DNA of 50,085 bases from Candidatus Thorarchaeota archaeon (GTDB lineage: Archaea > Asgardarchaeota > Thorarchaeia > Thorarchaeales > Thorarchaeaceae): contig JBHLRQ010000012.1 of the NCBI GenBank assembly GCA_048882385.1, positions 1-50,085 of the forward strand, written 5' to 3'. Positions within the stretch are counted from its first letter, which is position 1, and every line of letters starts with the position of its first letter. Position numbers and translations under genes: made by a program. Shown piece by piece: positions 1,956-39,024 of the stretch. The notes beneath the pieces were generated by a model. It ran no database searches and had not been told where the DNA came from. It saw nothing but the letters and a program-made list of their open reading frames with translations.

Positions 1956-2383
1956 TTAGTATTACCTCCTGCCTTCAGCGGACTAGGTCCGAGCCGTCTA
2001 ATTGAGTCTGTCATCTCAGTTATTCCATCTGCCCACTGTTGCCCTTCTGAAGCGCTTGCCCAAAGAAGTTTGAGTCTATCAGAATGAAGACCCATAGTCT
2101 TCATTGCCATCTGAAGAGCATCGAAGCGAACTTGTGTCCGATAGTTACCAGTGGCATAATGGCAATCCCCAGGGTGGCATCCAGTGACCATGACACCATC
2201 TGCGCCACCTTTGAAGGCCTCTAACACCATCACTGGATCTACACGACCTGAACACATCAGGCGAATCACTTTTGCATTCGGAGGATGTTGGATGCGAGAA
2301 ATTCCAGCTAAATCTGCACCTCCGTATGAACACCAGTTGCATGTGAAAGCAACAATACTTGGTTCAAATCGCTTCGGACTCAA
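1952..2383 (-). CDS. mvhD: MvhD/FlpD [2Fe-2S] subunit
   Basis: AFTCNWCSYGGADLAG, MCSGRVDP, GCHPGDCHY, WASASE; start and stop overlap the neighbouring genes. Confidence 0.93.
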   Translation of the reverse strand: MSPKRFEPSIVAFTCNWCSYGGADLAGISRIQHPPNAKVIRLMCSGRVDPVMVLEAFKGGADGVMVTGCHPGDCHYATGNYRTQVRFDALQMAMKTMGLHSDRLKLLWASASEGQQWADGITEMTDSIRRLGPSPLKAGGNTK

Positions 2384-5300: not shown

Positions 5301-5763
5301 CTCCACCACCAATTACTGCAGCGCTCTGAACTACATCAACAGACTTCCGTTCAAGCGGTTCGAGATACTTAACTCGTTCAACAGCCATTGCTACGAGTTC
5401 CTGGGCTTTCATCGTTGCAAAATCATGATCATCCATATGGACCCAACTGACATGTTCTCGAAGGTTGACTTGATCATAGAGATATCTGTTCAAACCAGCT
5501 TCTTCAACGCATGCACGAAAAACTGGTTCATGGGTTCGGGGAGTGCATGACGCAACTACTATTCTATTGAGACTATACTCTTTGATGGCTTGCTTGATAT
5601 TCTCTTGTCCATCATCAGAGCACGCAAACAAAAGATCCACGGAATGCGTTACATCCGGCAATGTTGCTGCATAGCTCGCTACAGCCTCACAGTCCACAGT
5701 TCCTGCAATATTCAATCCACAATTGCATACAAATACACCAATTCGCAAATCTGAATCACTCAT
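2380..5763 (-). CDS. hdrA: HdrA with inserted GltD/NfnB-like pyridine-nucleotide oxidoreductase (HdrL-type fusion), 1127 aa
   Basis: HdrA N-terminus ([28 protein letters not shown]); insert with [38 protein letters not shown]; HdrA C-terminus with a 2x[4Fe-4S] ferredoxin. Confidence 0.9.
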
Positions 5764-13100: not shown

Positions 13101-13570
13101 GAAACACCGCTACCAATGACTGCGATTTCAGGAATTATTGGTACACTCTCATAATCAAGTGGCTCTAAAAGACGTGCCCTGGCAACTGCCATTTCCACCA
13201 GACGTTTAGCCTTTTCATTGGCACCTCTCTCATCATGCATCGTACACCATGACACATGTTCCCGGATATTTACCATCTCGAAGAGAAAACGATTGAGTCC
13301 TGCACCTTCGATCGTCTTCCGAAATATTGGTTCATGGGTTCTGGGTGTACATGATGCAACAATTACCCTGTTCAGATTTTTCTCCCTGATTGCATCCTGA
13401 ATCGTCTTAAGTCCATCAGTTGAACATGTGAACATCAAATCTGCGGAATGTGCAACATTAGGCAAAGACTTAGCATGTTCACTTAACATGATTACATTTA
13501 CAGAACCAGCTATGTTGAGGCCACAATGGCAAACGAAAACACCAATCCTCACATCCTTCTCATTTCCCAT
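10196..13570 (-). CDS. hdrA: Second HdrL-type HdrA/GltD fusion
   Basis: Same architecture as 2380..5763 ([60 protein letters not shown]-terminal ferredoxin). ATG 13570 is preferred over TTG 13585. Confidence 0.9.
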   Translation of the reverse strand: MGNEKDVRIGVFVCHCGLNIAGSVNVIMLSEHAKSLPNVAHSADLMFTCSTDGLKTIQDAIREKNLNRVIVASCTPRTHEPIFRKTIEGAGLNRFLFEMVNIREHVSWCTMHDERGANEKAKRLVEMAVARARLLEPLDYESVPIIPEIAVIGSGVSGISAALSAANGGYQVHLIERRPTIGGQMALLDKVFPQNDCAICILGPIMASVEQHPNINLMTYSEVEDVEGYVGNFKMKVRKKARFIDSEKCNSCGECVPVCPMSIPNKYEYGLVDCKAIFRPFPQAVPNTYTIEKTGISSCRNACPAKVNNQAFIGLAREGKLKEALDVLREAAPLQRILGRVCHHPCESSCARSEFDEPVAIRQLKRYVADYVTENEHDIPEKISPTKSEKVAVVGAGPSGLTCALDLLLRGYSVTIIDSSKKPGGLITNCIPEYRVSNEVAMQDIGWVLGHGIKTQMNTTLGKDISLEQLQENYDAVYLAIGAQNPAELKIEGMQRGILYGIPFLRSVKRRKPPKSFGENIIVIGGGNVGIDCARSSIRLGAKKVTLVCLETRDLFSKDRMPAHDWEIEDAEFEGVEILGSLGPAKILSDKGIIKGLTTKVCRSVYTPEGKFAPVFSGAAGPTIKGDTIIIAIGQRPDLSGINMLDRTPNGYLRVDTTTLETNIPGIFAGGDVVTGPSSVIEAIAHGKEAAESIDRYLNGSDLLEGREREIHVLSSDEVDFTRVQHMIRITAKSLNRSKRRSSFEEVEFGLSKKKAEEELNRCVSCAICSECKLCMEKCESNAIDHNMIDQILDLNVGAIIVATGGESYEPLESREYGYGSLPDVITNAQFERITNAAGPTQGKIQRPSDGKTPRSIAFIQCVGARDPRADSDYCCYFGCENSLKQATQIKEKYPDTEVNIYAIDVRTHGPGYEELYQRALKMGIIVIKGKASEIEYDAQSKGLRIFAEDLYTGRNTSLTYDLVVLSTPMRPQHDSLEIARTIGVNTDRHGFFMCAHPKLRPIESFNDGIFFAGACIGPADIRNAVAQGRGAAAMAQSLISAGRFDIEPLYAEIDNEKCTNCELCADFCPYSAPKLEEDKMVIMKELCRGCGTCSGGCPQEAIDMKHYRRSQILPMIQAAVQPP

Positions 13571-14042
13571 AAATACACTTCCCAATAATTAAGGTCCAAG
13601 AAATTGGGTGTCCGCAAATCAATGCGGTTGTATGAATTGGTGACGCGTAGAGTTTTTCAGGATTGCATCGGACTTGTGTCTTGGCTCAACGATTCAACAG
13701 AACCATTCTTGAAAATAAGTGGTTTCAAATTGTAATAAGACCTTCTAGATTTTAAACACACAAAAAACGAATCTTTTTGATGGATAGCTAAATATTCTTA
13801 ACCATGATAGAAATTTAATTTTGTATGAAAACGTACATCGAGACTAGCCCAGAAGATACGTTTTGATCACAGAACATAGAATCTGATAGTTAGTAGTGAT
13901 ATCAGAGCGGATGTACGGGATAGATAGCAAAAAGGATACTGGATTGAAATCTACTTATTCTATTTTTCGACCATCAATTGCATTCTTCGAAAGCTTCGAG
14001 TTAGAATCAATCGATTTTCAGACCTATCTCTAAATCAAAATT

Positions 14043-16708: not shown

Positions 16709-19261
16709 GTGACAAATCCGACTCAAGACGTGCTTGCACAGGCAAAAGCCTTCATTGAGAAAGGAGAATACAAAACAGCTCTGGATAGTCTTCAATCATC
16801 TTATGTAGAGTTCAAAGATCCTGTGATGACCTTTGACGCACTAGTTATGATAGCAGAATCTTCATGGCGTTGTGGAAAATTGGACGATGGTCTTGTCGCA
16901 ATACAGAAGGCTGAGCAGCTCTTAGCAACTAAGGAATTGAATCAGCTGCAAGAGGAAGAAGATTTTCAGAAAAGGAAAGCTAGTCTCCTCTCTAATGCAG
17001 GGGTTATCCACTGGTATAAGGGAAATCTTGATCGGGCATCAGAATATTATCAACACAGCCTAAAAATCAGTGAAAAGATTGGGAACAAAAAGGGAGTTTC
17101 AACAGCCTTCAATAATATTGGTCTTGTTTATTGGACTAAGGGAGATTTGAAACAGGCAACTGAATACTATAAGAAGAGTCTGCAAATTTACGAAGAGTTG
17201 CACGACGAGAATGGGATAGCTAGCGTGTTAAACAACTTAGCCAATATTGGTACTACAACAGGAGAATTAGATCAAGCGCTGGAATATTTTCAACGGGTTC
17301 TTGAAATCAGAAGAAAATTCGACAATAAGAGTGACATCGCTAGGTGTCTGATCAATATAGGGGTCGCCTACAGGTTGAAAGGAGATCTTGACAAATCCAC
17401 TGATTACTACAACAAGAGTTTAGCCATACAAGAGGGTCTCAACATCGGACAAGAGTTTGCACTTGCACTCAACAATCTAGGAGACATCTACAACCTGAAA
17501 GGAGAATTAGATCTTGCTTTGGAATTCTACCAACGCAGTCTGCTCATCTACGATGGCATTGGAGTGAAAGAAGGTATTGCGCTTGTTCTAATGAATATTG
17601 GAGACTGCCATGCAAGAAAAAACAATATTGATTATGCATTCGAATACTTCGAAAGAAGTCTGCATATATCCAAAGAAATGGGAAACACACGACTGATTTC
17701 TAATGTACTAAATCAACTGGTTAGCTTGGCTTTGGATAATAGTGATCTTGAAGCCGCAAAGGAATACTTTTCACAACTTGAGCAAATCAAAGAAAAATCA
17801 GACAATCCAATTCTTAATCAACAATATTCGATCGCAGAAGCACTCATTCTGAAGAAAAGCAATCGGACCCGTGATAGAGTCAATGCAGAGGAAATTCTCG
17901 AGAAGGTTGTGGGGGAAGATGTCATTGATCATTCCTTGACTACTGTAGCAATGATACATCTCTGTGATCTGTTACTGCTCGAACTCAAAACAACACGTGC
18001 AGAAGAAGTACTTGCCAAGGTTAAAGAATTGACTCAAAAACTAGTCACAATTGCGGAGGAACAGGCTTCACACCCTCTTGTTGTTGAAACGTATTTACTA
18101 CAATCTAAACTGGCTCTAATCGAGTTCGAAGTAATTGAAGCGCGCAAACTGATGACTGAAGCAAAGAGGTTAGCTGATGAGAAAGGACTCCAAAGGCTCA
18201 GTCAAATAGTACAGAACGAAATAGATACTCTTCAGAATGAGGTTAAGAGATGGGAGTCCATTCTAGAAGTAAAACCATCCACGGAAGAGATGGTCAATCT
18301 TACCAATCTGGATGATCTCTTATCCAGAATGGTCCAGAAGACTGTAGAAACCCTTGGTGTAGAACAAACCCCCAGACAAGGAAGCTCAAAGTATTCTCTT
18401 GTTCACAGAGATTTTCTCAAAGGGACTGAAAAATCAGAGAGGAGCAAGTTCAGAGTAGGCATTGCACAATTGGGACTTTCAGAGAGTGGCGACATTCTAA
18501 ATGAGTTATATCAGGAGAAGGATGAGGGACTCATTGGGCTTCGAGAAAAGTCTGTTGAGAGTACGAGAATGAAACTAGAAGAAATGATAACGAAAGCTCA
18601 TTCTCAAGGAGTCGATATGCTTCTCTTTCCTGAAATGACTATTGACCTGAGTTACGAACGGTTAGCTAAGGATGTGGAGAAGCTTGCCAAGGAACATGGT
18701 ATCTACATCATTCCAGGTTCGTTCCATAACAGCGAAACTAGACGCAATGTCTGCAGAGTGTATGGACCAGATGGTCTTCTGTGGGAACAGGAAAAACACA
18801 TTCCAGCAATCATCCATATCGAAGGCAAGAGATTCCTAGAGAAGATTGAAACCTCCGCTGGTCCGAAGAATACAATCGTCTGCAACACCGAATTTGGTAG
18901 AATAGCTATTGCAATCTGCCGTGACTTCCTTGACATGGACCTGAGGGTTGAACTGAAAAACTCTGATCCCCCAGTTGACCTTGTCATAAACCCGGCGTTC
19001 ACACCTGTTACAGTAGATTTCAGGGCAGCGCACTTTGACGCTCGAAGATCCATCTATGCCTATTGTTTCTTCGCTAATGTAGCAGAGTTTGGAAACTCTC
19101 TTATCTATACGCCAGAGAAAGAACGAGTAGAGCTTAATGTTCCTTCGAAGAAAGAAGGAATCATATACAAAGACGTGGATCTCTTCGAGTTACGCGCTGA
19201 ACGAAAGAAATGGGAGCAAGAGAGGAAAAAGCAAACATCCTTCATTCAAAGCACTAGGTGA
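16709..19261 (+). CDS. TPR-repeat protein fused to a C-terminal carbon-nitrogen hydrolase (nitrilase-superfamily) domain
   Basis: About 40-aa TPR repeats (NNIGLVY, NNLANIG, INIGVAY, NNLGDIY, MNIGDCH); C-terminal VGIAQ, LFPE, QEKH, ICRDF, ANVA (E-K-C triad). Confidence 0.85.
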   Translation: MTNPTQDVLAQAKAFIEKGEYKTALDSLQSSYVEFKDPVMTFDALVMIAESSWRCGKLDDGLVAIQKAEQLLATKELNQLQEEEDFQKRKASLLSNAGVIHWYKGNLDRASEYYQHSLKISEKIGNKKGVSTAFNNIGLVYWTKGDLKQATEYYKKSLQIYEELHDENGIASVLNNLANIGTTTGELDQALEYFQRVLEIRRKFDNKSDIARCLINIGVAYRLKGDLDKSTDYYNKSLAIQEGLNIGQEFALALNNLGDIYNLKGELDLALEFYQRSLLIYDGIGVKEGIALVLMNIGDCHARKNNIDYAFEYFERSLHISKEMGNTRLISNVLNQLVSLALDNSDLEAAKEYFSQLEQIKEKSDNPILNQQYSIAEALILKKSNRTRDRVNAEEILEKVVGEDVIDHSLTTVAMIHLCDLLLLELKTTRAEEVLAKVKELTQKLVTIAEEQASHPLVVETYLLQSKLALIEFEVIEARKLMTEAKRLADEKGLQRLSQIVQNEIDTLQNEVKRWESILEVKPSTEEMVNLTNLDDLLSRMVQKTVETLGVEQTPRQGSSKYSLVHRDFLKGTEKSERSKFRVGIAQLGLSESGDILNELYQEKDEGLIGLREKSVESTRMKLEEMITKAHSQGVDMLLFPEMTIDLSYERLAKDVEKLAKEHGIYIIPGSFHNSETRRNVCRVYGPDGLLWEQEKHIPAIIHIEGKRFLEKIETSAGPKNTIVCNTEFGRIAIAICRDFLDMDLRVELKNSDPPVDLVINPAFTPVTVDFRAAHFDARRSIYAYCFFANVAEFGNSLIYTPEKERVELNVPSKKEGIIYKDVDLFELRAERKKWEQERKKQTSFIQSTR

Positions 19262-24783: not shown

Positions 24784-24974
24784 TACAGGAAAGGGGTTCT
24801 ATCTGATACTCTTCACCCACTTAAGAGCTATGCCATATGTCAATCAATTGCATTTCTGTAGCTGTTGTCAGAGTTTGTTTTATTTTCTAGAAAATAAGCT
24901 TATGCACATAATAATTTGCTTTATTAATCAGGACCGCTATTCGTTTCGTTTAGTATATGCGTGGAGGAGCTTCA

Positions 24975-27710
24975 ATGAAGAAGGAATACCTGAATCGAAG
25001 GGAGACATATCAAAAATTCACAGCTGTCTTTGTGATAACTATGATTATCATCTCATCTGCATCAATGATTCAAGTAATGATTGAAACGGGTCAGGATAAT
25101 GAAGTCGAACGAAGTATTGATAGTAAATTAGCGCGTAGTGTTACTAACAAACAGACGTCAGTTCTGGCTCAAGAGGGATCGTGGGTAAGCTTTGACATGT
25201 CAGCAAATGGAACCCCAGCTGAAGCTCACATTACAGGTTCAGACATGTCAGGCATCACAATTGTCGCTAATTTCCATGGATTCTGGAGAAGTAATACAAA
25301 CATAAATGGAACACAATTTGACGACCTTAAAATGCCCGGAGCTGGTTCTTTACAAAATCCAGGTGCACCTGTCCTACCATGTCTTTTTGAGTATATTGAG
25401 ATACCTCACGACATCAATGTTTCAGTTGATATCTTAACTTCATCAACTAATACTTCTACTGGCTACAACATTGGACCAGCTGTTTACGAAGATATTCCAT
25501 ATCCAATTGCAACGGGCCATAACGACACAGTACAGACAACTCCTCTACCGATAAATTATGGTCCTGAGTATTCAAATGACTCTTTCTTCCCAGGAATAAT
25601 TACTAGTACAGAAGGAGCAGCAGAAAATGAATCAATGATAATGCGAGGTCATAGATTATTAGGTTTGAGTTTCTATCCGGTCCAATATAATCCAACAAAT
25701 ACTACACTACTGTTTTACTCACAAATTGTTGCTAAAATTAATTATAGCATTCCTAAACTAATTCAGCCAGTTGAAAATCGATTGCGCTCAGATGTGTTCG
25801 ATCGAATTCTTGGTAATATGGTATTGAACTACGCATCTATTTATCCAACAGTAGCTCATCTGGCATATTCTCCAACAAGTATGGCACTGGCTCAAGAATA
25901 TGAGGGTGATGCTGAATATTTGATTATCACAACTCAGAACTTCAAGTTTCAGGCGGACAGATTGGCAGAATGGAAGGAACGGAAGGGAGTACCTTCAGAA
26001 GTTATCACTGTAACTGCTGGCGATGGTGATGAAGTCGCACAGGAAATACATGACGCATATACTAATGGAAATCCACCCCCTTCATATGTACTGCTTCTAG
26101 GGGATGTTAATGACATTCCAACTAGATATGACACAGCAATGACATCCAGCCTATTCATGTATTTCAGTGGAGACATCGCATCTGATCTTAGTTATTTCAA
26201 TATTGACGGAGCGGGTTATCTCCCAGAAATGGTATACAGCAGGATTTCAGTTGATACCCAAGAACAAGCACAGACAATTGTTGACAAGATTCTTCAGTAT
26301 GAACAATCGCCGCCATTCGATTCATCATTCTACAAAGACGTATTTTTTGCTGGCGAATTTTCTGATTTGAATCCATTAGATGGAAAAGAAGACAGTGAGT
26401 TCAAGTTTCTAAGTATTTTAGAGAGAATCAGACATTTCCTGAAGGATGAGTACACACCCCACATCAATTATTCATCAATGTATATGAACTTCGACTATCC
26501 TGGTCATGTTAGTGGGTCAAACATAGATCTAGCAGATTTGGAATTATATTATAGTACACTCTCAACATCAAATCTAGTCATAGATTCAATATCTACAACA
26601 GATTATCCGAATTTTGCATGGCTAGGTAGATATGACTGGTACTGGGATCTAATAGGTGCTGACAATCCCTTTTATGCAGATGCCCGAGACAATGTCACGC
26701 GCAGTTTCAATGAGGGTAAATTCTTGGTTTTGTACTTTGGGCATGGAGGGTCCAAAAATATGGTAACTACAGCACAGAGGGATTTTGTAGAAGGTTGGCA
26801 ACACCCATTCTTTAATACAAGTTACTTCTCTGATCTGACCAATGGCGTGGAAACTCCTCTGATAATAAGTATGGCATGTAGCACTGGGTGGTTTGATGGT
26901 GAAACAGATGAAGCTGAAATGTATGTTGGAGATCTTGGCGGCTTCTTGGGCCACAATCTATTCGAAGATTATGAGAATGAGTGTTTTGCTGAGAACATCA
27001 CAAGACTAGAGGGAGGAGGTGCAGTTGCGGCGATTTCATCATCGCGTCCGGGTCATGCAGGAGTTTCTGCATATCTAATGGATGGGATAATCGCAGCATT
27101 CTGGCCTGAATTCACAGAAGCAAGTGGTGAACCGATTCACGAAAACGGAGGAGAGCCAATATACGAGATGGGAGGGGCACTTCTTGCAGGCAAGCTCTAT
27201 GCTAAAGAAAAATGGAGAGAACTATATGATGCATCACTAATTGGATTTAGAGAAGCTTGGTATCCCCAACATAAAGCTGACACTACTTTTCATGAATATC
27301 ATCTCTTTGGAGATCCAGAAACAGAACTTTGGACTGATGTCCCATCGCCCCTAGAGGTAACATACCCAGAATCAATTGGATTATCCCCGTCTCAGAGATT
27401 GCTCATAACTGTACGGAATCAGACATCCGGTCTCCCAGTTGATCATGCAAGAGTCTGTATTCAACAAGAAATCGAGCAGGAGGACGGTATCTATCAAATA
27501 GGATATACAGATGCTAATGGAGAAATTAGTTTTTACATCGCGACTCACGCATCATCCCCAAATATCAATGTAACAGTGACAAAACACAATTATCGACCCC
27601 ATATTGGAGAAATAGTTGTTCTAGACATGATTGGTCCGGTTATTCTACTTGTTGGAGGATTAATTGTACTCGTGATAATTTTGATCATTAGAAGACAGAA
27701 AAATCGGTAA
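24975..27710 (+). CDS. Membrane-anchored gingipain-like cysteine protease (peptidase C25 with propeptide)
   Basis: N-terminal hydrophobic segment, PGAPVLP propeptide, YLIITT, YVLLLGD, catalytic YFGHGG and SMACSTG, LFGDP, VTVTKHNY, C-terminal TM plus RRQK; GGAGGA RBS supports ATG 24975. Confidence 0.88.
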   Translation: MKKEYLNRRETYQKFTAVFVITMIIISSASMIQVMIETGQDNEVERSIDSKLARSVTNKQTSVLAQEGSWVSFDMSANGTPAEAHITGSDMSGITIVANFHGFWRSNTNINGTQFDDLKMPGAGSLQNPGAPVLPCLFEYIEIPHDINVSVDILTSSTNTSTGYNIGPAVYEDIPYPIATGHNDTVQTTPLPINYGPEYSNDSFFPGIITSTEGAAENESMIMRGHRLLGLSFYPVQYNPTNTTLLFYSQIVAKINYSIPKLIQPVENRLRSDVFDRILGNMVLNYASIYPTVAHLAYSPTSMALAQEYEGDAEYLIITTQNFKFQADRLAEWKERKGVPSEVITVTAGDGDEVAQEIHDAYTNGNPPPSYVLLLGDVNDIPTRYDTAMTSSLFMYFSGDIASDLSYFNIDGAGYLPEMVYSRISVDTQEQAQTIVDKILQYEQSPPFDSSFYKDVFFAGEFSDLNPLDGKEDSEFKFLSILERIRHFLKDEYTPHINYSSMYMNFDYPGHVSGSNIDLADLELYYSTLSTSNLVIDSISTTDYPNFAWLGRYDWYWDLIGADNPFYADARDNVTRSFNEGKFLVLYFGHGGSKNMVTTAQRDFVEGWQHPFFNTSYFSDLTNGVETPLIISMACSTGWFDGETDEAEMYVGDLGGFLGHNLFEDYENECFAENITRLEGGGAVAAISSSRPGHAGVSAYLMDGIIAAFWPEFTEASGEPIHENGGEPIYEMGGALLAGKLYAKEKWRELYDASLIGFREAWYPQHKADTTFHEYHLFGDPETELWTDVPSPLEVTYPESIGLSPSQRLLITVRNQTSGLPVDHARVCIQQEIEQEDGIYQIGYTDANGEISFYIATHASSPNINVTVTKHNYRPHIGEIVVLDMIGPVILLVGGLIVLVIILIIRRQKNR

Positions 27711-27790
27711 AAGCCAAAAATCTAGCAGGATTTTTAAGTACCTTAAGATACACACAGTGATTAATCGCGTCCTTAGGAGGATTTGAAAAA

Positions 27791-27907
27791 ATGGAAATAC
27801 CAGGTTGGCTTGTAGCCATATTAGTAATACTTCTAATCTTCTTCATGCTTGATGCTTTGTATATCGTTGATATAATTCCGAATGTTGGAACTGGTTGGCC
27901 AAACTAA
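27791..27907 (+). CDS. Small hydrophobic peptide A, 38 aa (MEIPGWLVAILVILLIFFMLDALYIVDIIPNVGTGWPN)
   Basis: AGGAGGA RBS at 27775-27781, TTTTTAAG box at 27731, and a homologous tandem copy with many synonymous differences. Confidence 0.8.
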   Translation: MEIPGWLVAILVILLIFFMLDALYIVDIIPNVGTGWPN

Positions 27908-27971
27908 CTGGATCACTCCAGCATTCAAAATTAAAGCAGTGTTCTGCTTGCATATATAGGTGGATTTGAGG

Positions 27972-28115
27972 TTGGAAGTACCAGGCTGGCTTGTAGCTAT
28001 ACTTGTCATACTAATTATCTTCTTTCTTCTGGAAGCACTTGATATCATTGACTTCATTGTCATCTGCTCTGATTGGCCTTGTACATTCACGAACTCAGAT
28101 AGTCTGGTTCAGTAA
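27972..28115 (+). CDS. Small hydrophobic peptide B, 47 aa (MEVPGWLVAILVILIIFFLLEALDIIDFIVICSDWPCTFTNSDSLVQ)
   Basis: TTG start after AGGTGGA (27958-27964); 22 of the first 29 aa identical to peptide A. Confidence 0.75.
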   Translation: MEVPGWLVAILVILIIFFLLEALDIIDFIVICSDWPCTFTNSDSLVQ

Positions 28116-28124
28116 ATGTGAGAG

Positions 28125-29594
28125 TTATAGCCTTCTTTGCAGGCTGTCAAAGTAGGGTTTTAGGAATTGCAGATTCTTTTTCTCTGTGAGTGAACGAAGC
28201 TGTGGAAGAATCTCTCTTAGAAGTGTATCATCACTGTTCAAAATTGCCATATCCGCCTTGAGTATTAATGCTTGTCCAAGGATTCCAGGCAGATCCTCAG
28301 ATATAGCTCTTTCTTCCAATATTGCAAGCGAAGGAGATACTACTTCACCTTGTGTGCAAGACAGGATTTCGATCTTGGCTAGTTGGTGTAAGAATATGTT
28401 CTCCATTAGCAATGCTGTTCCTTGTTGTTCATAGATTTTTAGCCCTTGTTCAATGCTGCTCAAGGCCATTGGAAAATCACCTTGTTCCATTTCTAAAACG
28501 CCTGTTACAAAATGAAGCCATGCAAGTTGGTCTTCATTTCCAGATTTCAAAATGGGTTCACGTATTGAATCTAAAGAAATCTCAGCCTCTGTTAACTTCT
28601 TCAGGAGAACTAGCGACCATGTTTGAAATAATCGGGCGTGGTTGATCAAATATGGTCTTCCACTAAACTGATCCTCTGCCATTCGACCCCACTCCAGCCC
28701 TGATTCAGGTTCTCCCACTATATTGTAAAAGATTGAAAGGAAAGAAGAGGGATTCCCACTCTCCAAACCCGCTCGTTCTCGAACACTTACTGCTTTTAGA
28801 CACCGTTCTATCGCAGTATCGAATTCACCCCGTATTGCATCCAAAAGACTAAGATTATAGATTACGTTTGCATAATTACCAGGAAGTCCTAGACTGGATT
28901 CAACGATTTCATATGCTTCTTCCAGAACCTCTCTGGATTTCTTTCGGTCGAAGTTGATAAGGATACCTCCCTTTCTTATTAGAAGGTGGGTTTTTCGCAG
29001 CTTGTCGTCAAAATCCTCTGCAATCTGTATTCCGCTATCAATAGAGCGAAGTTGTTCCTCCGTGTCACCATCCACTTGTGCTCGAATTGATAAGAAATCA
29101 CACAATACAATTTCATAGAAACCAAAGTAAGTATTACTATCTATTAATTCACGAATCTTTTCCATTGTGGACGTCTTATACATGGTTGAAGGGTAATTTC
29201 TCATGTCAACTTCGAACTTAATCAAATACATTTCAAGAGCTATCCAGTCTTCCGGATCTGTTGCTAGAACAGCATCTGTTAATGCATGAACCTCAATTGC
29301 ATCATCATATGTGCCTTGATAAACTGATGAATAGAATAGATTTGGACCTAGTATCTGATGGTGTCCATATTTCTCTCTGATCATGTCTACAAGTTTGTAA
29401 TCCAGTCCAATCATAGCAAAATGGATTGCAAAATAAACAACCATGACAGGGCTTTCATTTTTGAGAACAAATTCAACCAGTCTATGTACGAAGTCATAGT
29501 AATCTGATGCCTCTGTCATAGTATTGTCTAGAACACCCTTTATTTCTTCATCAATGAATGGATAATATTGGGTGATCGTGCCAATTGGCTCCAT
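28125..29594 (-). CDS. Helical/TPR-like repeat protein, paralogue 1 (489 aa)
   Basis: TPR-like units (LHFVTGVLEMEQGDFPMALSSIEQGLKIYE); colinear with 31871..33340. Confidence 0.8.
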   Translation of the reverse strand: MEPIGTITQYYPFIDEEIKGVLDNTMTEASDYYDFVHRLVEFVLKNESPVMVVYFAIHFAMIGLDYKLVDMIREKYGHHQILGPNLFYSSVYQGTYDDAIEVHALTDAVLATDPEDWIALEMYLIKFEVDMRNYPSTMYKTSTMEKIRELIDSNTYFGFYEIVLCDFLSIRAQVDGDTEEQLRSIDSGIQIAEDFDDKLRKTHLLIRKGGILINFDRKKSREVLEEAYEIVESSLGLPGNYANVIYNLSLLDAIRGEFDTAIERCLKAVSVRERAGLESGNPSSFLSIFYNIVGEPESGLEWGRMAEDQFSGRPYLINHARLFQTWSLVLLKKLTEAEISLDSIREPILKSGNEDQLAWLHFVTGVLEMEQGDFPMALSSIEQGLKIYEQQGTALLMENIFLHQLAKIEILSCTQGEVVSPSLAILEERAISEDLPGILGQALILKADMAILNSDDTLLREILPQLRSLTEKKNLQFLKPYFDSLQRRL

Positions 29595-29647
29595 CTTTGC
29601 GCTCCTTCTTAATCCTAATCAATCATAGGATACTTTCTCTACTTGGA

Positions 29648-29662
29648 GAAAAATCTTGTTCA
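29648..29662 (-). promoter_or_regulatory. Conserved upstream element of TPR paralogue 1 (TGAACAAGATTTTTC)
   Basis: Identical 15-mer at 33396-33410, 54 vs 56 nt from the respective starts, while the surrounding spacer diverges. Confidence 0.65.
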
Positions 29663-29710
29663 AAACTCCACATACATCAAAACGGAGTAGAAATATGGTT
29701 GTATCATTTC

Positions 29711-30649
29711 TTAAATGCCAGAATCACGAATCATCTCTTCAATCTTTATCTTTCCAAGCCTTGTAAATTTCCGTACAGGATAGGATAATAGAACATCAAC
29801 TGATTTTGAAAACGGTGTATTCTTTGTACTTCTAGATATCTCTTCAGCATCACGAAAATGATTCGTAACGAACTTAGCAAAGAGGATTGGTTCCATTGCA
29901 GAATAAAACGAGAACCAATAATCATCAGGAAATCTTTCCCGTAGCCATTCATCGATCGCATCCATTCGTGAAACTTGTTCGTCGTACTCAATTTTGAGAT
30001 AGAACTCAGTATTCTGTCCTAAACTCAGATTCCATCTCACTGCAAACCAGAAAGCATTGCTACTTTGCATCTCTTGGATGGCTCTACTCACTCGTCTAGA
30101 AGTAAGACCGGACTGCTCAGAGATTTCACTGACCTGCATCCGAGCATCATCAAGGAGATATTTCAATACACGAAGGTGCAGATTCTTTATTTCAAACATC
30201 TCACCAGGTTTTGTTAAAATAGTATGCAGCTCAATATTCGTCACCGATTCCAAAGTTCTAAGGAATGACCCTACATTCTGTAGACCTTCTGCACCTATGT
30301 ACTCGCAATGGAGGAAGTACAGACGACCTGTTCCAGTTACAATTTGTCCGACTTGAATAATCATAAGATGAGAACCCAAATGTTCCATGAACTTTTCTTC
30401 ATTCTCGGATCCGTCAGTAGAAACTAGAGCAATAAGATAATCTGATCCCATCATAGCAGGCCTTAGCACAATCGAGTACTCTTCAATAACACCAGTTTCA
30501 ATAAGTCGATCCATTCTCTTCTTGACGGCATTGGCAGTCACTCCCAACATGTCTGCTAGAGACTGATAGGACAATCTACAGTTTTCATCAAGTGCAAGAA
30601 GAATGGTTTTATCTGTTGGGTCCAATTTGTCCACCGTGACTGAGCTCAC
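29711..30649 (-). CDS. Lrp/AsnC-family regulator with two HTH modules
   Basis: LDPTDKTILLALDENCRLSYQSLADMLGVTANAVKKRM and a second HTH, LRVLKYLLDDARMQVSEISEQSGLTSRRV. Confidence 0.85.
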   Translation of the reverse strand: MSSVTVDKLDPTDKTILLALDENCRLSYQSLADMLGVTANAVKKRMDRLIETGVIEEYSIVLRPAMMGSDYLIALVSTDGSENEEKFMEHLGSHLMIIQVGQIVTGTGRLYFLHCEYIGAEGLQNVGSFLRTLESVTNIELHTILTKPGEMFEIKNLHLRVLKYLLDDARMQVSEISEQSGLTSRRVSRAIQEMQSSNAFWFAVRWNLSLGQNTEFYLKIEYDEQVSRMDAIDEWLRERFPDDYWFSFYSAMEPILFAKFVTNHFRDAEEISRSTKNTPFSKSVDVLLSYPVRKFTRLGKIKIEEMIRDSGI

Positions 30650-31029
30650 TCAGTCTTTGGTGGTATTAGAGCTCTAAATAGATTATCTTCAGGAGCTTCT
30701 TTCAATTCTTTCGAAGCACAATAGATGCATCCTGTACCGATGACAGATAATTCAAAGCCAACTTCTCTTAGTTTCCTAAGATATTGTATATGTTCAAAAA
30801 GTCGATCAATCATTTCAGACGAATCCAAAACCGATGAACCATTTTCCTCTGGAAATGACATTTCAACCTCAATAACAAGTGAGTTTTCTTCCTCCTCCTC
30901 CTCATAACTATCAAGCAGAATTCGTACCCATGGTGTTCGATAAAGGAGAGTTGATACGTCATTTGGGTCTGTCTTTGCTCTGATTCGAGAAGCCGCTTCG
31001 TTGAATTTCTCTTTTAGGTTGAGTGTCAT
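30646..31029 (-). CDS. Hypothetical acidic protein (127 aa), coupled to the Lrp gene
   Basis: GTGA stop/start overlap; plausible amino-acid composition. Confidence 0.7.
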   Translation of the reverse strand: MTLNLKEKFNEAASRIRAKTDPNDVSTLLYRTPWVRILLDSYEEEEEENSLVIEVEMSFPEENGSSVLDSSEMIDRLFEHIQYLRKLREVGFELSVIGTGCIYCASKELKEAPEDNLFRALIPPKTE

Positions 31030-31140
31030 CTTGTGATAGAATTAGATTGAATTGAATATGAAATAGCCTACACCTGCAGGTTAGGAAAATAGCTTCACGG
31101 TATGCGTCTTGAGCAAATAACTAATTCAACCAATGCGAAT

Positions 31141-31821
31141 TTAATCACGAAAGTTCTCGAGAATCTCAACGACCTCACTATCTGATACATCATACCATTT
31201 CTTGTAGGCACTGGCTACAGCGAAGATGAATCCCGATTCAATCCTTGGACATATCAGATAATCAACTTCGCTAGCTATCAAATCGGATGCACTGCCAGAT
31301 GAGGTTGGAACTGCAACGATTATTCGGTTTGGTGCCAGAGTTCGGACTGACTCAATTGCTGCCTTCATAGTGTAACCACTGGCAAGCCCGTCATCTACCA
31401 GAATCACATCTCTGTTTGATGGCTGAATGATACCTACAAGTCCTCGGTAGTCAGCTTTGCGCCTAGCTATCTGATCTTGTGTCTGTTTCACAACCAAGTC
31501 TATCTGTCGTTGATTCAATCCAATCGACCTTACTAAGCTCTCATTTAGTAACAGTGAACCATGAGAGGTAAGTGCTCCAAATCCAGCTTCAGGGTTTCCA
31601 GGAACCTGCAATTTACGAACAATGATAGCATCTAAATCAGCATTTAGAGATTTGGAAATCTCAACACCTACAGGTACACCACCATTTGGAATTGCAAGTA
31701 CAATAGGTCTAGTTTTGAAATCAATTGATTCAAGCTCACGTGCTAAAACCCGTCCTGCTTCCGTGCGATCCTCATAGGAATACAACTGCCTAGCCTCACT
31801 TGATTTACTCAGAGCTTCCAC
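31141..31821 (-). CDS. Phosphoribosyltransferase-family protein
   Basis: DRTEAG, LAIPNGGVPV, VILVDDGLASG (PRPP loop). Confidence 0.9.
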   Translation of the reverse strand: MEALSKSSEARQLYSYEDRTEAGRVLARELESIDFKTRPIVLAIPNGGVPVGVEISKSLNADLDAIIVRKLQVPGNPEAGFGALTSHGSLLLNESLVRSIGLNQRQIDLVVKQTQDQIARRKADYRGLVGIIQPSNRDVILVDDGLASGYTMKAAIESVRTLAPNRIIVAVPTSSGSASDLIASEVDYLICPRIESGFIFAVASAYKKWYDVSDSEVVEILENFRD

Positions 31822-31870
31822 ATAAGGTGTGTGACGAAACTTGATTCAACTTTGAAATCGGGAAGCATAA

Positions 31871-33340
31871 CTATAGATTACGAATCAATCTCTCAAAATG
31901 AGGTTTCAAGAAAGGCAGGTTCTCGTTATCAGCTAGTACCTGAAGTTGGTTTGTGACGTCCCTGAGAAGTGCCTCATCACCAGTCATGATTGCCATCTCG
32001 CCCTTGAGGACTAGAACTTGCCCAATGAATCCCGATAGATTACCTGAAATTGCTCTATCTTCGAGGATAGCTAATGATGGAGAAACTATCTCATCCGAAT
32101 GACAAGATCTCACTTCAATTCTAGCAAGCTGATGAAGGAATATGAGCTCTGTGAGAAATGCTGTCCCTTGACGTTCATAGATTCTGAGAGCTTGCTCAAC
32201 ACTACTAGTAGCCAATGAGAAGTTCTCGTTTTCTGCTTCAATGAGGCCGGTGACAAAATGTAGCCATGCTAAGTGACTCTCATCTCCAGATTTTAGAACT
32301 GATTCGCGAGTTGTGTCAACCAGGACCTGAGCCTCAGTTAGGCGTTTCAGTAAAATCAGTGACCAAGCTTGATTGAGTATTGCTCGATTTAACAAGTATG
32401 GTCTGCTCTTGTATTGTTCCTCAGCCATACATGCCCACTCAAGCCCTGATTCAAAATCACCAATCACATTGTGCAAAACCGATAGTAGATAGGACGCGTT
32501 TCCAGTATTCAGACCGGCTCTCTCTCGAAGAGATACAACATCCAAGAGTCGTTTGATAGCGCTATCAAAGTCACCTCGAATTGCGTCAAGTACGCCTAGA
32601 CCATATATGATTTCAGCATACTCCACAGGTATGCATAATTTAGTTTCAACAATCTTGTACGCCCTCTCAAGCAGCGCTCGAGATTCATCCCGATCACTAT
32701 TCATGATGATTCCAGCTTTCCGTATCAGAAGGTGTGCAATGCGAACTTGTTCATCGAACTTCTCTGCTGCCCTCAGTGCTTTATTTACGCACCTCATTCG
32801 TTCCTCAGAGTCACCGTCTGCATGTGCTCGAATTGCAAGATAGTCATAGAGGCAAGCATCATAGTAACCAAAATCAGGATTTTCATCTATCATTCTACGA
32901 ATAGTGTTCAACACCGAATCTTGATAGATGGTCGTAGGGTAGTTTCTCATGTCAGCCTCAAACTTCATGAAAGTCATTTCAAGGGTAAGCCAATCAGGAG
33001 GATCTGTAGCGAGGACTGCATCAGCCAATTCATGCACCTTTTGTAAGTCCTCTACTGTCCCCTGATAGGCAGAGGAAATGAACAGATTCGGACCGAGTAC
33101 TAGATGATGACCATATTTTTCACGAATTTTGTCAATGAGTTTATAATTCAGTGAGAGGATGGAGTGATGGATAGCAAAATAAACGACCATGACCGGACTT
33201 TCTTTCTCGAGTACTAATTCACCAAGTCGATGTACAAAGTCATAGTAGTCAGATGCTGCCCCCATTATGGTCTCAAGTAAATTCTTTGTTTCCTCTTCGA
33301 TAAATGGGAAGTAGCATGTTATCGTTCCGATAGGATCCAT
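31871..33340 (-). CDS. Helical/TPR-like repeat protein, paralogue 2 (489 aa)
   Basis: Same length as 28125..29594, with shared blocks (SPVMVVYFAIH, LDAIRG.FD, LAWLHFVTG, VSPSLAILE). Confidence 0.8.
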   Translation of the reverse strand: MDPIGTITCYFPFIEEETKNLLETIMGAASDYYDFVHRLGELVLEKESPVMVVYFAIHHSILSLNYKLIDKIREKYGHHLVLGPNLFISSAYQGTVEDLQKVHELADAVLATDPPDWLTLEMTFMKFEADMRNYPTTIYQDSVLNTIRRMIDENPDFGYYDACLYDYLAIRAHADGDSEERMRCVNKALRAAEKFDEQVRIAHLLIRKAGIIMNSDRDESRALLERAYKIVETKLCIPVEYAEIIYGLGVLDAIRGDFDSAIKRLLDVVSLRERAGLNTGNASYLLSVLHNVIGDFESGLEWACMAEEQYKSRPYLLNRAILNQAWSLILLKRLTEAQVLVDTTRESVLKSGDESHLAWLHFVTGLIEAENENFSLATSSVEQALRIYERQGTAFLTELIFLHQLARIEVRSCHSDEIVSPSLAILEDRAISGNLSGFIGQVLVLKGEMAIMTGDEALLRDVTNQLQVLADNENLPFLKPHFERLIRNL

Positions 33341-33395
33341 CTTTTCACTCCCTCTTAGACGGATATCCTAGTACTACACTATGGTTCCACTCCGT

Positions 33396-33410
33396 GAAAA
33401 ATCTTGTTCA
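33396..33410 (-). promoter_or_regulatory. Conserved upstream element of TPR paralogue 2
   Basis: Identical to 29648-29662. Confidence 0.65.
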
Positions 33411-36732: not shown

Positions 36733-37566
36733 CTAATCAAACTGCTCATCAAGCCATATTCCTAGGGGTTTCAGACTTCCATCAGGAAATTCCGTATGCG
36801 TTCCACCAGCAGCAACATGAAACTTCTTGTTCATCGATGGAATCTCATCAAAGAATGATTGACAAGCCTCAACTGAAAAGAGCGGATCACTGTCACCTAT
36901 GCCAACAAAGACAGGCATAGTTCCGAGATTAGGAATAACAAAGTCTCGTGTTTGTACAATCTTCATGAATCGAAATGTGTAGTTAAAATTGAAAAGAGGA
37001 TCATCTAGTCCAACCATTCCCTCACGGTAATACCGAATTATTGGTTTGCTGGGTCTAAATATCGAATTAAACAATATATTCAGTTTTTGAAGAGTGGAAA
37101 TACTAGGATAAACGTCAGGCCTCGTGGTTCTGGCTCCGCTTAGTAAAACAACGCCATCTATGTTTTCGAGACAATTACCTAGAGCAAAAGCACTCGATAG
37201 AACTCCCAGGCTATGACCCATTAGAACAACTTTAGGATGAATCTGCTTGACAAAATAAATTGCCTCACAAAGGTCTCTGATATATCTCTCTTTACTCGGG
37301 TAGTCTCCTCTATTCCCATCGGAGAGACCATGTCCTCTCAGATCCAAACCATATACAGTGAAACCAAGCTCTGTGAGCGGATTAGTGATTAATCCATATG
37401 GTCCACTATATGCTGTAATCCCATGAAGTAAGAGGATACCAGTATCTTTTGTATCCGATTTTCTGGAATTCCATTTCCTAATGAAGAGTGTTTGATTATC
37501 AGAGGTTGTTAGCAAATGATGGGGACCATCAAACTCACTCCGCAGTGCTTGAATTTCAAGCGTCAT
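36733..37566 (-). CDS. Alpha/beta hydrolase (lysophospholipase / monoacylglycerol lipase-like)
   Basis: LLHG, DLRGHGLS.G.RG, GHSLG nucleophile, D..F, H. Confidence 0.88.
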   Translation of the reverse strand: MTLEIQALRSEFDGPHHLLTTSDNQTLFIRKWNSRKSDTKDTGILLLHGITAYSGPYGLITNPLTELGFTVYGLDLRGHGLSDGNRGDYPSKERYIRDLCEAIYFVKQIHPKVVLMGHSLGVLSSAFALGNCLENIDGVVLLSGARTTRPDVYPSISTLQKLNILFNSIFRPSKPIIRYYREGMVGLDDPLFNFNYTFRFMKIVQTRDFVIPNLGTMPVFVGIGDSDPLFSVEACQSFFDEIPSMNKKFHVAAGGTHTEFPDGSLKPLGIWLDEQFD

Positions 37567-37785: not shown

Positions 37786-39024
37786 TCACGAATTTCTTTT
37801 TCTCCTTAATGAAACAACGATTACAGTAACGCTTGTTATAATGGGAATGGAAATACCGAGAACCACTGGGAGAGATATCAGATTTGAAGAAGTATTGCTG
37901 GTCGTCGTAGTAGATGTGCTGTTGAAGTTAGTCCAGTTCAATCTGTATGAATTAGCAGAAGGAACATATTCTTCCAGATATGCTCGAGCTTTTTCAACAT
38001 TCAATGCTCCAAATCCGGATTTCTCATCCCAACCCGTGTCCAACATATCAGTAGCACCCCAAACCATCGCATCTTCAATTTGACCATTTGATGCCCATGG
38101 AAACTGATTCCAGAGAAGAACAGCTGAAGCTGCAACTATTGGTGTTGAGCAGGATGACCCTCCGAATGTGCCATAATCACCTGTAGTCTGCATGTATGCA
38201 GGCACACCACCAGCAGGACCAACTAGAAACAACTTATCACCGTATCCACCCTCATTGAATGTACCTGTACTGTCAAATCTACCAATGACTCGAACATACG
38301 GCAATGACTGCGGAATGTCCTTTGGATGTAGTGGATAGAGAGTATTATCACATGCTGCAAAAAAGAGTGCTTCCCCGCTTTCATGAAGTTCTGTAACCTT
38401 ATTTTGAAGTTCAACCAGGACAGGATCATCTAATTCGAGCATGTATACTGTTGCGAGAAAACTCATCGTGAACACCATTTTTCCAAAGCTAGTGCCCCAT
38501 TCGAATATGTCAATTAATTTCTGTAAGTAAATTCGATACGAAACAACATCATCAGTAGGATAACTGCCCCAAGGCCACGCACAGTACAGTGGGGCGTTTA
38601 CTATCCCTGCCACTCCTATGTTGTTATTGATTGTTGAAGCTGCTACTGATGCAACTGCAGCTTCATGAGAACTCGAACTGGAAGTTGGGTAAGGTAGATA
38701 TGAAGTCATATTGTCATTCCATGAAAAACTAGCCTTTTCAGATACATTCAGGTCCCCATTTTGATAATCAATGATAGCCTCCCCCACTATACATAACCCA
38801 ACACTCTCTGGAGAATCAAAGAAGTAGCCATGGTCCCAAACACTATGAATATTGATTGCATCCAAATGCCATGGATCTCCAATAGGATCATTTGGAATGA
38901 ATCCCAGAATAAGGGGGAGATTACCAAATGAGTGGATTATGATCAAGAATATTGTTGCACACATTAAAGCAGTTGGCCTGGAGAAAAATGATCTTGAACC
39001 TGCTTTCCTAATGCCCATTTTCAA
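37786..39024 (-). CDS. Divergent subtilisin-like (S8) protease, secreted and C-terminally anchored
   Basis: WHLDAIN, NNNIGVAGI, GGSSCSTPIVAAS, GATDM...GWD..SGFG.LN; Ser/Thr linker, TM helix, RRKR. Confidence 0.78.
   Translation of the reverse strand: MKMGIRKAGSRSFFSRPTALMCATIFLIIIHSFGNLPLILGFIPNDPIGDPWHLDAINIHSVWDHGYFFDSPESVGLCIVGEAIIDYQNGDLNVSEKASFSWNDNMTSYLPYPTSSSSSHEAAVASVAASTINNNIGVAGIVNAPLYCAWPWGSYPTDDVVSYRIYLQKLIDIFEWGTSFGKMVFTMSFLATVYMLELDDPVLVELQNKVTELHESGEALFFAACDNTLYPLHPKDIPQSLPYVRVIGRFDSTGTFNEGGYGDKLFLVGPAGGVPAYMQTTGDYGTFGGSSCSTPIVAASAVLLWNQFPWASNGQIEDAMVWGATDMLDTGWDEKSGFGALNVEKARAYLEEYVPSANSYRLNWTNFNSTSTTTTSNTSSNLISLPVVLGISIPIITSVTVIVVSLRRKRNS

Follow-up and report, generated by a model that had tools for sequence, protein, structure and literature searches.

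To our knowledge, peptide signalling through intracellular receptors built of tetratricopeptide repeats (TPR) has been described in no group other than the Firmicutes and their mobile elements, where it takes the form of the RRNPP systems (Rap-Phr, NprR-NprX, PlcR-PapR and AimR-AimP), and the archaeal signalling molecules whose reports we know of are small non-peptide compounds. The pheromone-response locus of the Enterococcus plasmid pCF10 includes a gene for an OppA-like binding protein (PrgZ), and the genes for the receptor (PrgX) and the peptide (PrgQ) are transcribed towards each other. In agrBDCA and comQXPA, enzyme, peptide and receptor vary jointly as specificity cassettes and the response regulator is conserved; AgrB is a cysteine peptidase residing in the membrane, where an N-terminal helix anchors AgrD. 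Here we describe a locus in a 50,085-nucleotide stretch of a Candidatus Thorarchaeota genome (assembly GCA_048882385.1, contig JBHLRQ010000012.1, positions 1 to 50,085; hereafter the window), in which a gene for a C25 peptidase is followed by two genes for short hydrophobic peptides, which converge on the gene for a TPR protein, TPR_A, next to the gene for a tandem Lrp/AsnC-type regulator, Lrp2. We propose, with a probability of about 0.38, that this locus encodes a peptide signalling system that would be a functional analogue of Rap-Phr and the other RRNPP systems, with a cassette polymorphism like that of agr or comQXP.

The genome containing the window, labelled G000 among the genomes compared, is a Thorarchaeota assembly of 3.7 Mb in 256 contigs. 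The C25 peptidase gene (24957-27710, + strand) encodes 917 amino acids (aa) with the Pfam domains Peptidase_C25 and Propeptide_C25. Behind it on the same strand stand a conserved promoter-like motif (27724..27742), 49-67 bases before the start of peptide 1 ('a'; 27791-27907, 38 aa), and then peptide 2 ('b'; 27972-28115), which has 47 aa if read from TTG 27972 or 51 aa from GTG 27960. TPR_A (28125-29594, - strand, 489 aa, Pfam TPR_12) is convergent with the peptides; there are nine bases between the last base of the peptide 2 stop (28115) and the first of the TPR_A stop (28125). These genes had been recognized in a first-pass annotation made from the sequence without database searches, together with the double helix-turn-helix (HTH) regulator and a second TPR gene of equal length, and its inventory was borne out: the surface protease matches Peptidase_C25 (E 3.1e-50), the two peptides are paralogues with 56% identity (E 1e-10 in a whole-genome search, which found no further copies), Lrp2 matches HTH_24 in two stretches (E 9.7e-23), and TPR_A and its paralogue TPR_B, both of 489 aa, are 59% identical without gaps. 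It passed over two genes, p127 and a phosphoribosyltransferase-domain gene, the latter lying between the regulator and TPR_B. As in RRNPP systems, a TPR-type protein adjoins a gene for a peptide of 35-58 aa with a hydrophobic leader and a variable C-terminal part, and, as in Rap, an HTH is absent from the TPR protein and a regulator is encoded separately nearby; structural comparison of its model with RRNPP receptors gives Z scores of 18-22. Unlike those systems, the locus belongs to an archaeal host and shows no membership of an RRNPP sequence profile, its peptide genes stand tail-to-tail with the TPR gene instead of following it in the same orientation, the unit includes a dedicated C25 gene, the long hydrophobic stretch of the peptides has no clear signal-peptidase site, and sister modules encode large partners without a leader.

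The surroundings of the closest TPR homologues were gathered, and the proteins of the window were mapped onto them. The order C25, peptide(s) and convergent TPR gene seen in the window recurs in G014, G016, G020, G024, G005, G002, G004, G021 and G018, as well as in G067, which belongs to another genus. A profile of the peptides (E <= 1e-4) gave 14 matches in 11 of the 28 genomes of the genus, all at this locus: 12 lie between C25 and TPR genes, another, in G002, is located 192 bases upstream of the TPR gene at the locus, and the remaining one (G043) adjoins a binding-protein gene, with no TPR gene. Three weaker matches elsewhere (E 0.006-0.03) look spurious, and three contigs (of G006, G042 and G043:C265) end before the slot. 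Wherever both are seen, the peptide genes stand behind C25 and share its strand, and the gap between the peptide and TPR stops, nine bases in the window, is about 20-110 bases in the related loci listed. Searched against 5.8 billion proteins, the profile found 16; the eight with a named source are annotated as 'hypothetical protein', seven of them from Thorarchaeota and one from Promethearchaeota.

The first-pass annotation had cautioned that such adjacency might be due to chance, TPR families being often expanded in such genomes; a member would then happen to stand beside unrelated small open reading frames and a peptidase. The family is indeed large, occurring in 58 of the 81 genomes sampled in the class and in 13 of the 17 sampled genera with up to 19 matches per genome (which are not copy counts), and in the genome containing the window it is found in five places (six matches, two of which are one gene split by unknown bases); moreover, close relatives inherit gene order. 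However, all 14 peptide matches in those 11 genomes fall at one locus, the trio persists while its flanks rearrange and spans a genus boundary, its history is discordant with that of its neighbours, diverged paralogous modules occur within G043, and the small genes are under purifying selection and carry a conserved promoter. Chance adjacency is thus largely refuted, and we give it hardly any credence.

Judged from their codon substitutions, the peptide genes are real and under purifying selection, with ratios of nonsynonymous to synonymous substitution (dN/dS) of about 0.16 between a and b of the window (29 codons), 0.20 between G016 and G005, 0.43 between the two G002 copies, and 0.16 between G002 and G005, where synonymous sites are saturated. 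TTG 27972 is the more likely start of peptide 2, because it aligns with the start of peptide 1 and with the Shine-Dalgarno-like sequence of that gene; the resulting 47-aa form also stands in the protein collection (P0128). The promoter-like motif of the window, AGCWGRATTTTTAAGKAMC, consists of a TATA-like box with conserved flanks and is followed by a Shine-Dalgarno-like GGAGG. In the form ATAGCTGRATTTTTAAGGAACCTCA, about 40-60 bases before the start and followed by GGAGG, it is present in 12 of 16 aligned upstream regions from 11 genomes, and its carriers are the second G043 copy and all 12 peptide genes that stand first or alone except that of G004. The 'b' genes of G000, G014 and G067 retain only the GGAGG-like part; the lack of a separate promoter motif makes it probable that b is transcribed together with a. 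The motif has one exact match in the genome containing the window, at this locus, and one other place matches with two mismatches; the idea of a promoter common to other genes was rejected. The 'b' gene of G014 (L052 1267-1371, - strand) has CTA at the aligned start instead of ATG, GTG or TTG and retains both the frame and the Shine-Dalgarno-like sequence, which may reflect an unusual start or decay.

Across the family, the peptides are 35-58 aa long and consist of a short, usually basic N-terminus, 13-19 hydrophobic residues, an acidic junction with the consensus LE.LGI.D.IP and a tail rich in Gly, Pro and aromatic residues. Peptide a of the window has a short N-terminus, the hydrophobic stretch, an acidic junction (D..D.IP) and the tail NVGTGWPN; peptide b has a leader like that of a and the tail ICSDWPCTFTNSDSLVQ. 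Orthologues of a with a GxGWP tail and 'b'-type orthologues ending in DWP or VWP occur in both G014 and G067, so that both paralogues are retained in these two genomes and in G000. Mean pairwise identity is 0.34 in the leader, up to the conserved proline, compared with 0.16 in the tail (120 pairs). The two G043 copies share 32 identical N-terminal residues, and their DNA is near-identical from 85 bases upstream to about 95 coding bases, after which similarity breaks off abruptly at the tail. A conserved leader with a variable core and multiple precursor copies is typical of antimicrobial precursor families, and the locus could accordingly be read as encoding ribosomal antimicrobial precursors resembling archaeocins or ribosomally synthesized and post-translationally modified peptides, with C25 as leader peptidase and the TPR and binding proteins serving recognition or immunity. 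The abrupt change of core, the several precursor copies per locus and the short, hydrophobic nature of the peptides fit such a role; the 'leader', however, is here the hydrophobic part itself, and no modification enzyme, dedicated exporter or recognizable immunity gene was found in the window or in the related loci read. We consider an antimicrobial function very unlikely.

A Lys or Arg precedes the hydrophobic stretch in 12 of 16 peptides, and the C-terminal part is net negative in 15 of 16. By the positive-inside rule, this charge distribution predicts that the N-terminus lies inside the cell and the C-terminus outside. The caveat raised earlier, that the peptides lack a basic n-region, is lifted in the relatives. 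The predicted location of the tail is also where the catalytic domain of C25 would be expected, because the peptidase has a signal-like hydrophobic N-terminal stretch and a hydrophobic C-terminal anchor followed by RRQKNR; it is probably membrane-anchored and extracellular. Its Peptidase_C25 match scores 171.9 bits against a Pfam cut-off of 23, and its Propeptide_C25 match 60.3 bits (E 1.8e-16) against 22. In alignment with gingipain R (PDB 1cvr), 'yfGHGgs' corresponds to 'ytGHGse' and 'ismaCstG' to 'fdvaCvnG', the aligned His and Cys of which we take to be the catalytic residues; both motifs are intact, in support of the signalling reading. The protein resembles gingipains and PorU in having catalytic and pro-domains above the Pfam cut-offs and aligned His/Cys motifs, and differs from them in its archaeal origin and in being anchored by a hydrophobic C-terminal span rather than carrying a type IX secretion C-terminal domain; with the NCBIfam PorU equivalog model it reaches 50.7 bits against a cut-off of 420, below membership.

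Most relatives have a domain of about 350 aa between a TVTKHN..PH.G stretch and the anchor, and their open frames (including those at L050, L052 and L056) are 1228-1306 aa long, compared with about 917 in the window, where this domain is absent. Its absence looks like an in-frame loss, because the anchor directly adjoins the conserved stretch; the match of the extra domain of one relative to CARDB is weak (E 0.0014). The genome containing the window encodes two C25 peptidases. Two C25 paralogues are fused into frames of about 2800-3000 aa with no TPR gene nearby, and in G021:C89 (L083 2185-4860) one in-frame TGA lies near the start of the C25 match, where the true start may be downstream or the gene may be damaged.

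The conserved synteny that the first-pass annotation had suggested examining was found for the whole peptide-TPR-C25 unit, and the phylogenies of TPR and C25 agree with each other. Four groups are common to the trees of TPR (27 rows) and C25 (17 rows): {G067,{G000,G014}}, {G016,G005}, {G080,G043_C145} and {G017,G003}. Pairwise identities of C25 and TPR proteins are correlated with r 0.93 (55 pairs from 11 genomes), or r 0.85 within the peptide-bearing type 1 (21 pairs), and the correlations against Lrp2 are -0.14 and -0.09; as identity pairs are not independent, these coefficients are descriptive. Lrp2 groups G000 and G043 together (100/99) and rejects {G000,G014,G067} (delta log likelihood 116, p of the approximately unbiased test 4e-63), whereas C25 rejects {G000,G043} (delta log likelihood 73.9, p 0.0008), the groups tested having been chosen after the other trees were viewed. 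At the DNA level, the window and G043 share a block of 5087 bases with 89% identity, which runs from a TetR gene to base 29728, beside the Lrp2 stop; beyond 29728 only patches of 66-83% identity remain. C25 is 41% identical between G000 and G043, compared with 87-97% for the flanks, and Lrp2 is 64-87% identical in the relatives. Because the histories of C25 and TPR agree, that of Lrp2 is discordant and the break falls at the Lrp2 stop, we conclude that C25, the peptides and TPR_A behave as an exchangeable cassette on a backbone that, by these sequence comparisons, comprises Lrp2, p127 and TPR_B. Similar behaviour is known from agr and comQXPA: C25, peptide tail and TPR vary jointly here, and Lrp2 is conserved with a discordant tree, a pattern that linkage alone could also give. 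Unlike in those systems, there is no homology to their components, the candidate receptor is cytoplasmic rather than a membrane histidine kinase, and there is no sign of peptide modification. A cytoplasmic TPR protein and an extracellular peptidase that have been kept together despite duplication of the module and divergence down to 30-45% identity would suggest a connection between the two sides of the membrane.

G043 carries two module types. The contig that carries the type 1 cassette closes with the initial 14 codons of a TPR gene divergent from C25 (L082 11780-11821), and at the end of the contig with the second C25-TPR module stand the 200 C-terminal residues of a TPR protein (L088 6836-7465); the two cassettes may stand back to back.

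A different account can be given of an exchangeable block of this composition, in which a surface-protease cassette is under diversifying selection or frequently replaced, the peptides are membrane-resident partners of C25 (an anchor, inhibitor, assembly factor or substrate), and the TPR protein is a helper or regulator carried along, with no intercellular signal. The constant position of the peptides behind C25 suits this account, as does the possibility that 13-19 hydrophobic residues with hydrophobic flanks form a true membrane span. C25 is moreover the most divergent protein of the block, which is typical of exposed proteins, G043 has C25 and peptides without a TPR gene in the slot, and linkage within a block can by itself give the correlation between C25 and TPR. 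On the other hand, the account leaves unexplained why the TPR gene has been retained through duplication, through divergence to 30-45% identity and through a reorientation of C25 in G066, why it is the tail and not the membrane part that varies, with an abrupt junction, and why the peptide has a strongly conserved promoter of its own. We regard a cassette that serves the protease only as somewhat unlikely.

Turning to the candidate receptor, TPR_A is modelled by AlphaFold2 (41 homologues) as an all-helical superhelix of 26 helices with a predicted local distance difference test score (pLDDT) of 95.1. It has neither an HTH nor a signal sequence, and only TPR_12 and TPR_2 are matched in Pfam; we infer from the model that it is a candidate cytoplasmic receptor or adaptor linked to the cassette. 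The absence of an HTH agrees with the first-pass suggestion that, like Rap, it would need a separate regulator. When the model was compared by VIA-align with 48,161 representative chains, the top match was domain III of MalT (Z 23.0 over 329 residues, root-mean-square deviation 4.2). TPR_A resembles MalT domain III and the sensor domains of STAND proteins in this respect, and differs from them in being a stand-alone protein of 489 aa without NTPase or DNA-binding domain; three of the 120 listed members of the family (P0050, P0060 and P0114) have a Pfam TPR_MalT record. RRNPP receptors make up seven of the 12 best structural matches, with alignments covering nearly the full chain: phi105 Rap with its peptide (Z 21.9, 333 of 350 residues), RapI (21.2), NprR-NprX (20.5), AimR (19.8), pLS20 Rap (18.8), RapH (18.4) and phAimR (18.4). 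The Foldseek comparison with Rap, PlcR and AimR that had been suggested earlier went the other way, as the PDB ranks to 50 hold generic, mostly eukaryotic TPR proteins and no RRNPP receptor. Similarly, no RRNPP receptor is among the best 60 of the 87 PDB sequences matched by a profile of 41 TPR sequences (E <= 1), and by sequence the profile matches the TPRs of LGN/Pins and kinesin light chain. The modelled TPR_A is thus built like RRNPP receptors and equally like other long TPR solenoids.

The second TPR protein bears on a further claim of the first-pass annotation, which had proposed two cognate peptide-receptor pairs. TPR_B (31871-33340, - strand) forms its own clade in the TPR tree and lies in the backbone, inside the DNA block shared with G043; it is 97% identical there, although the peptide tails of G043 are quite different. 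The intergenic spaces of 49 and 117 bases on its two sides leave no room for a peptide gene, and G014, G067 and G002 have two peptides and one such TPR gene at the locus. The claim of two pairs is consequently not supported. No peptide partner was found beside the TPR paralogues on C46, C15 and C178 or in the distant tandem arrays.

In sister modules, the peptide is replaced by other small proteins. A protein of 139-159 aa ending in GPWPxTGxGGD occupies the slot in G017, G003, G008 and G019 (four of the 28 genomes of the genus, the G019 copy being cut), always convergent with the TPR gene; proteins of 180-190 aa with GPWP once or twice are found in G080, G043:C145 and G094, a protein of about 165 aa in G015, and one of 227 aa in G066, where C25 is turned round and the small gene is still convergent with the TPR gene. 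In a TPR clade at 36-42% identity, G091 and G088 (two of the three loci read) have a convergent gene for a 404-414-aa single-span protein (L089 7677-8891 and L092 7196-8440, both - strand), with 5-9 tandem copies of P.WNHPTD.PDG after the span, and no C25 gene was found within about 6 kb in this clade.

These variants suggest a reading in which the TPR protein is an intracellular adaptor that binds Trp/Pro motifs (GWP, GPWP, WNHPTD) in the C-terminal tails of its convergent partners, with C25 as a co-regulated output instead of the enzyme that processes the peptides. TPR proteins with comparable properties are known, as kinesin light chain binds W-acidic motifs and PEX5 and Hop bind C-terminal peptides, and the similarity of the TPR profile to LGN/Pins and kinesin light chain is in keeping with this. 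The convergent neighbour switches with the TPR clade yet retains such motifs, from GxGWP in type 1a and DWP or VWP in type 1b to the GPWP of the 139-159-aa and 180-190-aa partners and the repeats of G091 and G088, and the larger partners have no export signal. However, the charge distribution of the small peptides places their tails outside the cell, many type 1 tails have no Trp (e.g., PAFPPESFT and PGIGPTRPD), the motif was spotted by eye with no chance baseline, and the link to C25 and the presence of a binding-protein gene in the cassette are left unexplained. An adaptor of this kind is in our view unlikely.

This binding-protein gene belongs to the family of solute-binding proteins SBP_bac_5. 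The 610-aa member in the TPR slot of G043 (E 6.2e-36) carries both a signal sequence and an anchor at the C-terminus. G016 has an intact homologue (62% identity) between Lrp2 and the TPR gene, and another, also intact, is located immediately upstream of the TPR gene in G024 (53%). The cassette of the window has no such gene, and the genome containing the window has seven matches to the G043 protein elsewhere. In having SBP_bac_5 beside or in place of the TPR gene in three genomes and in the convergence of the peptide and TPR genes, the locus resembles PrgX-PrgQ-PrgZ. It differs in that the binding protein is restricted to one cassette clade and absent from the window, that there is no plasmid or conjugation context, and that the promoters of pCF10 face each other, whereas here it is the 3' ends that meet, nine bases apart.

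Next to the cassette, Lrp2 (29711-30649, - strand) encodes a 312-aa protein with two winged-HTH units. HTH_24 and an AsnC-type HTH match two stretches each, best at residues 9-56, and MarR_2 and TrmB place the second unit at about residues 152-196; about 90-110 residues follow each HTH, and PF01037 (AsnC_trans_reg, RAM) gave no match at E <= 0.01. Lrp2 has ten further matches elsewhere in the genome containing the window. A double-HTH protein beside the TPR paralogue on C46 was considered as an Lrp2 relative and rejected (best local E 0.023). Directly upstream of Lrp2 in 13 related loci, and overlapping its start with its own stop in the window, is p127 (30646-31029, - strand, 127 aa), which has no Pfam or NCBIfam match and no usable Atlas match; its model has a pLDDT of 79, and the best structural match (Z 6.5) is at noise level. 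In six relatives, a distant tandem-Lrp paralogue with 38-43% identity, which the window does not have, is divergent from p127 (L050 1-651, L051 6132-7046, L056 11048-11902, L058 8271-9116, L061 5400-6314 and L087 12789-13694).

Taken with the cassette structure, the most economical account is that the peptide tail would link the outside peptidase with the cytoplasmic TPR protein. In the signalling reading, the peptide would insert with its N-terminus inside and its C-terminus outside; its tail would be freed outside the cell, for which the co-inherited C25 peptidase is the obvious candidate, and would then re-enter the cell, possibly with the help of the OppA-like binding protein encoded in the cassette of one clade. 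The TPR protein would bind the tail and then act on a separate regulator, the adjacent pair of p127 and tandem-Lrp genes being a candidate. The signalling system envisaged by the first-pass annotation is retained insofar as the unit is conserved and co-inherited, the TPR model has a Rap-like fold and three genomes encode a solute-binding protein in the cassette; its two pairs are not supported, and the leaderless partners of sister modules and the low specificity of the fold tell against it. We keep the probability at about 0.38 because we infer each mechanistic step, from topology and cleavage to uptake, binding and output, and because those leaderless partners do not fit.

Several observations weigh against this reading. 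The sister modules keep C25 and TPR, but the proteins in their slots have no hydrophobic leader and could not reach an outside peptidase via the Sec route. Most peptides have no canonical signal-peptidase residue before the proposed junction, and those of the window have Tyr or Asp there. The number of peptides does not track the number of TPR genes, and no partner recurs beside the distant members of the TPR family (25-32% identity), most of which stand in tandem arrays. No RRNPP sequence family was found for the TPR protein, Pfam returning generic TPR and NCBIfam nothing relevant, and in structural comparison generic TPR proteins score much as RRNPP receptors do (LGN 21.3, APPBP2 21.3, APC5 19.8 and Pins 19.6). 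Regarding uptake, family-5 binding proteins also bind non-peptide ligands, the three cassettes with such a gene fall in one C25 clade (96/96) and may go back to a single event, and no Opp permease or ATPase genes were found within the window. The absence of a TPR gene from the slot of G043, which keeps the peptides and C25, and the possibility that the co-variation of C25 and TPR may stem merely from one recombining block count here as well.

The remaining genes of the window are of less direct bearing. The phosphoribosyltransferase-domain gene (31141-31821, - strand; Pfam Pribosyltran, E 1.2e-12) differs among relatives in its position relative to the cassette and belongs to the backbone, being probably unrelated to the cassette. 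An S8 subtilase gene (37786-39024, - strand) and an S33-type hydrolase gene (36733-37566, - strand) lie about 5 kb from the cassette backbone. An 850-aa protein (16709-19261, + strand) has many TPR repeats (TPR_12 E 7.8e-45, TPR_MalT E 1.6e-30) and ends in a carbon-nitrogen hydrolase domain (E 3.5e-10). Two paralogues of about 1128 aa (2380-5763 and 10196-13585, both - strand) combine pyridine-nucleotide-disulphide oxidoreductase domains with several 4Fe-4S domains, and a 1021-aa protein encoded between TPR and Lrp2 in G067 (L084 6730-9795) has a Cys-rich start and end like theirs.

No description of such an archaeal system or of a Thorarchaeota module of this kind was found in the titles and abstract openings of the literature consulted, and a passage search in PMC12700828 met 'archaea' only in the reference list. 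The fuller claim, that this is the first peptide-pheromone system of Archaea, in which C25, an exported propeptide and a Rap-like TPR protein co-diversify as pherotype cassettes swapped beside a tandem-Lrp output regulator, is doubtful at present. Expressing each part of the cassette and assaying it with synthetic peptides would not require the organism in culture. Should the signalling reading be wrong, the locus is still a previously undescribed surface-protease module that evolves fast and includes a small, conserved partner gene. If it is true, an Asgard archaeon would have independently reached the logic of both RRNPP and agr systems, and the cassette would offer a concrete way of testing ideas about social behaviour or kin recognition among the prokaryotes most closely related to eukaryotes.

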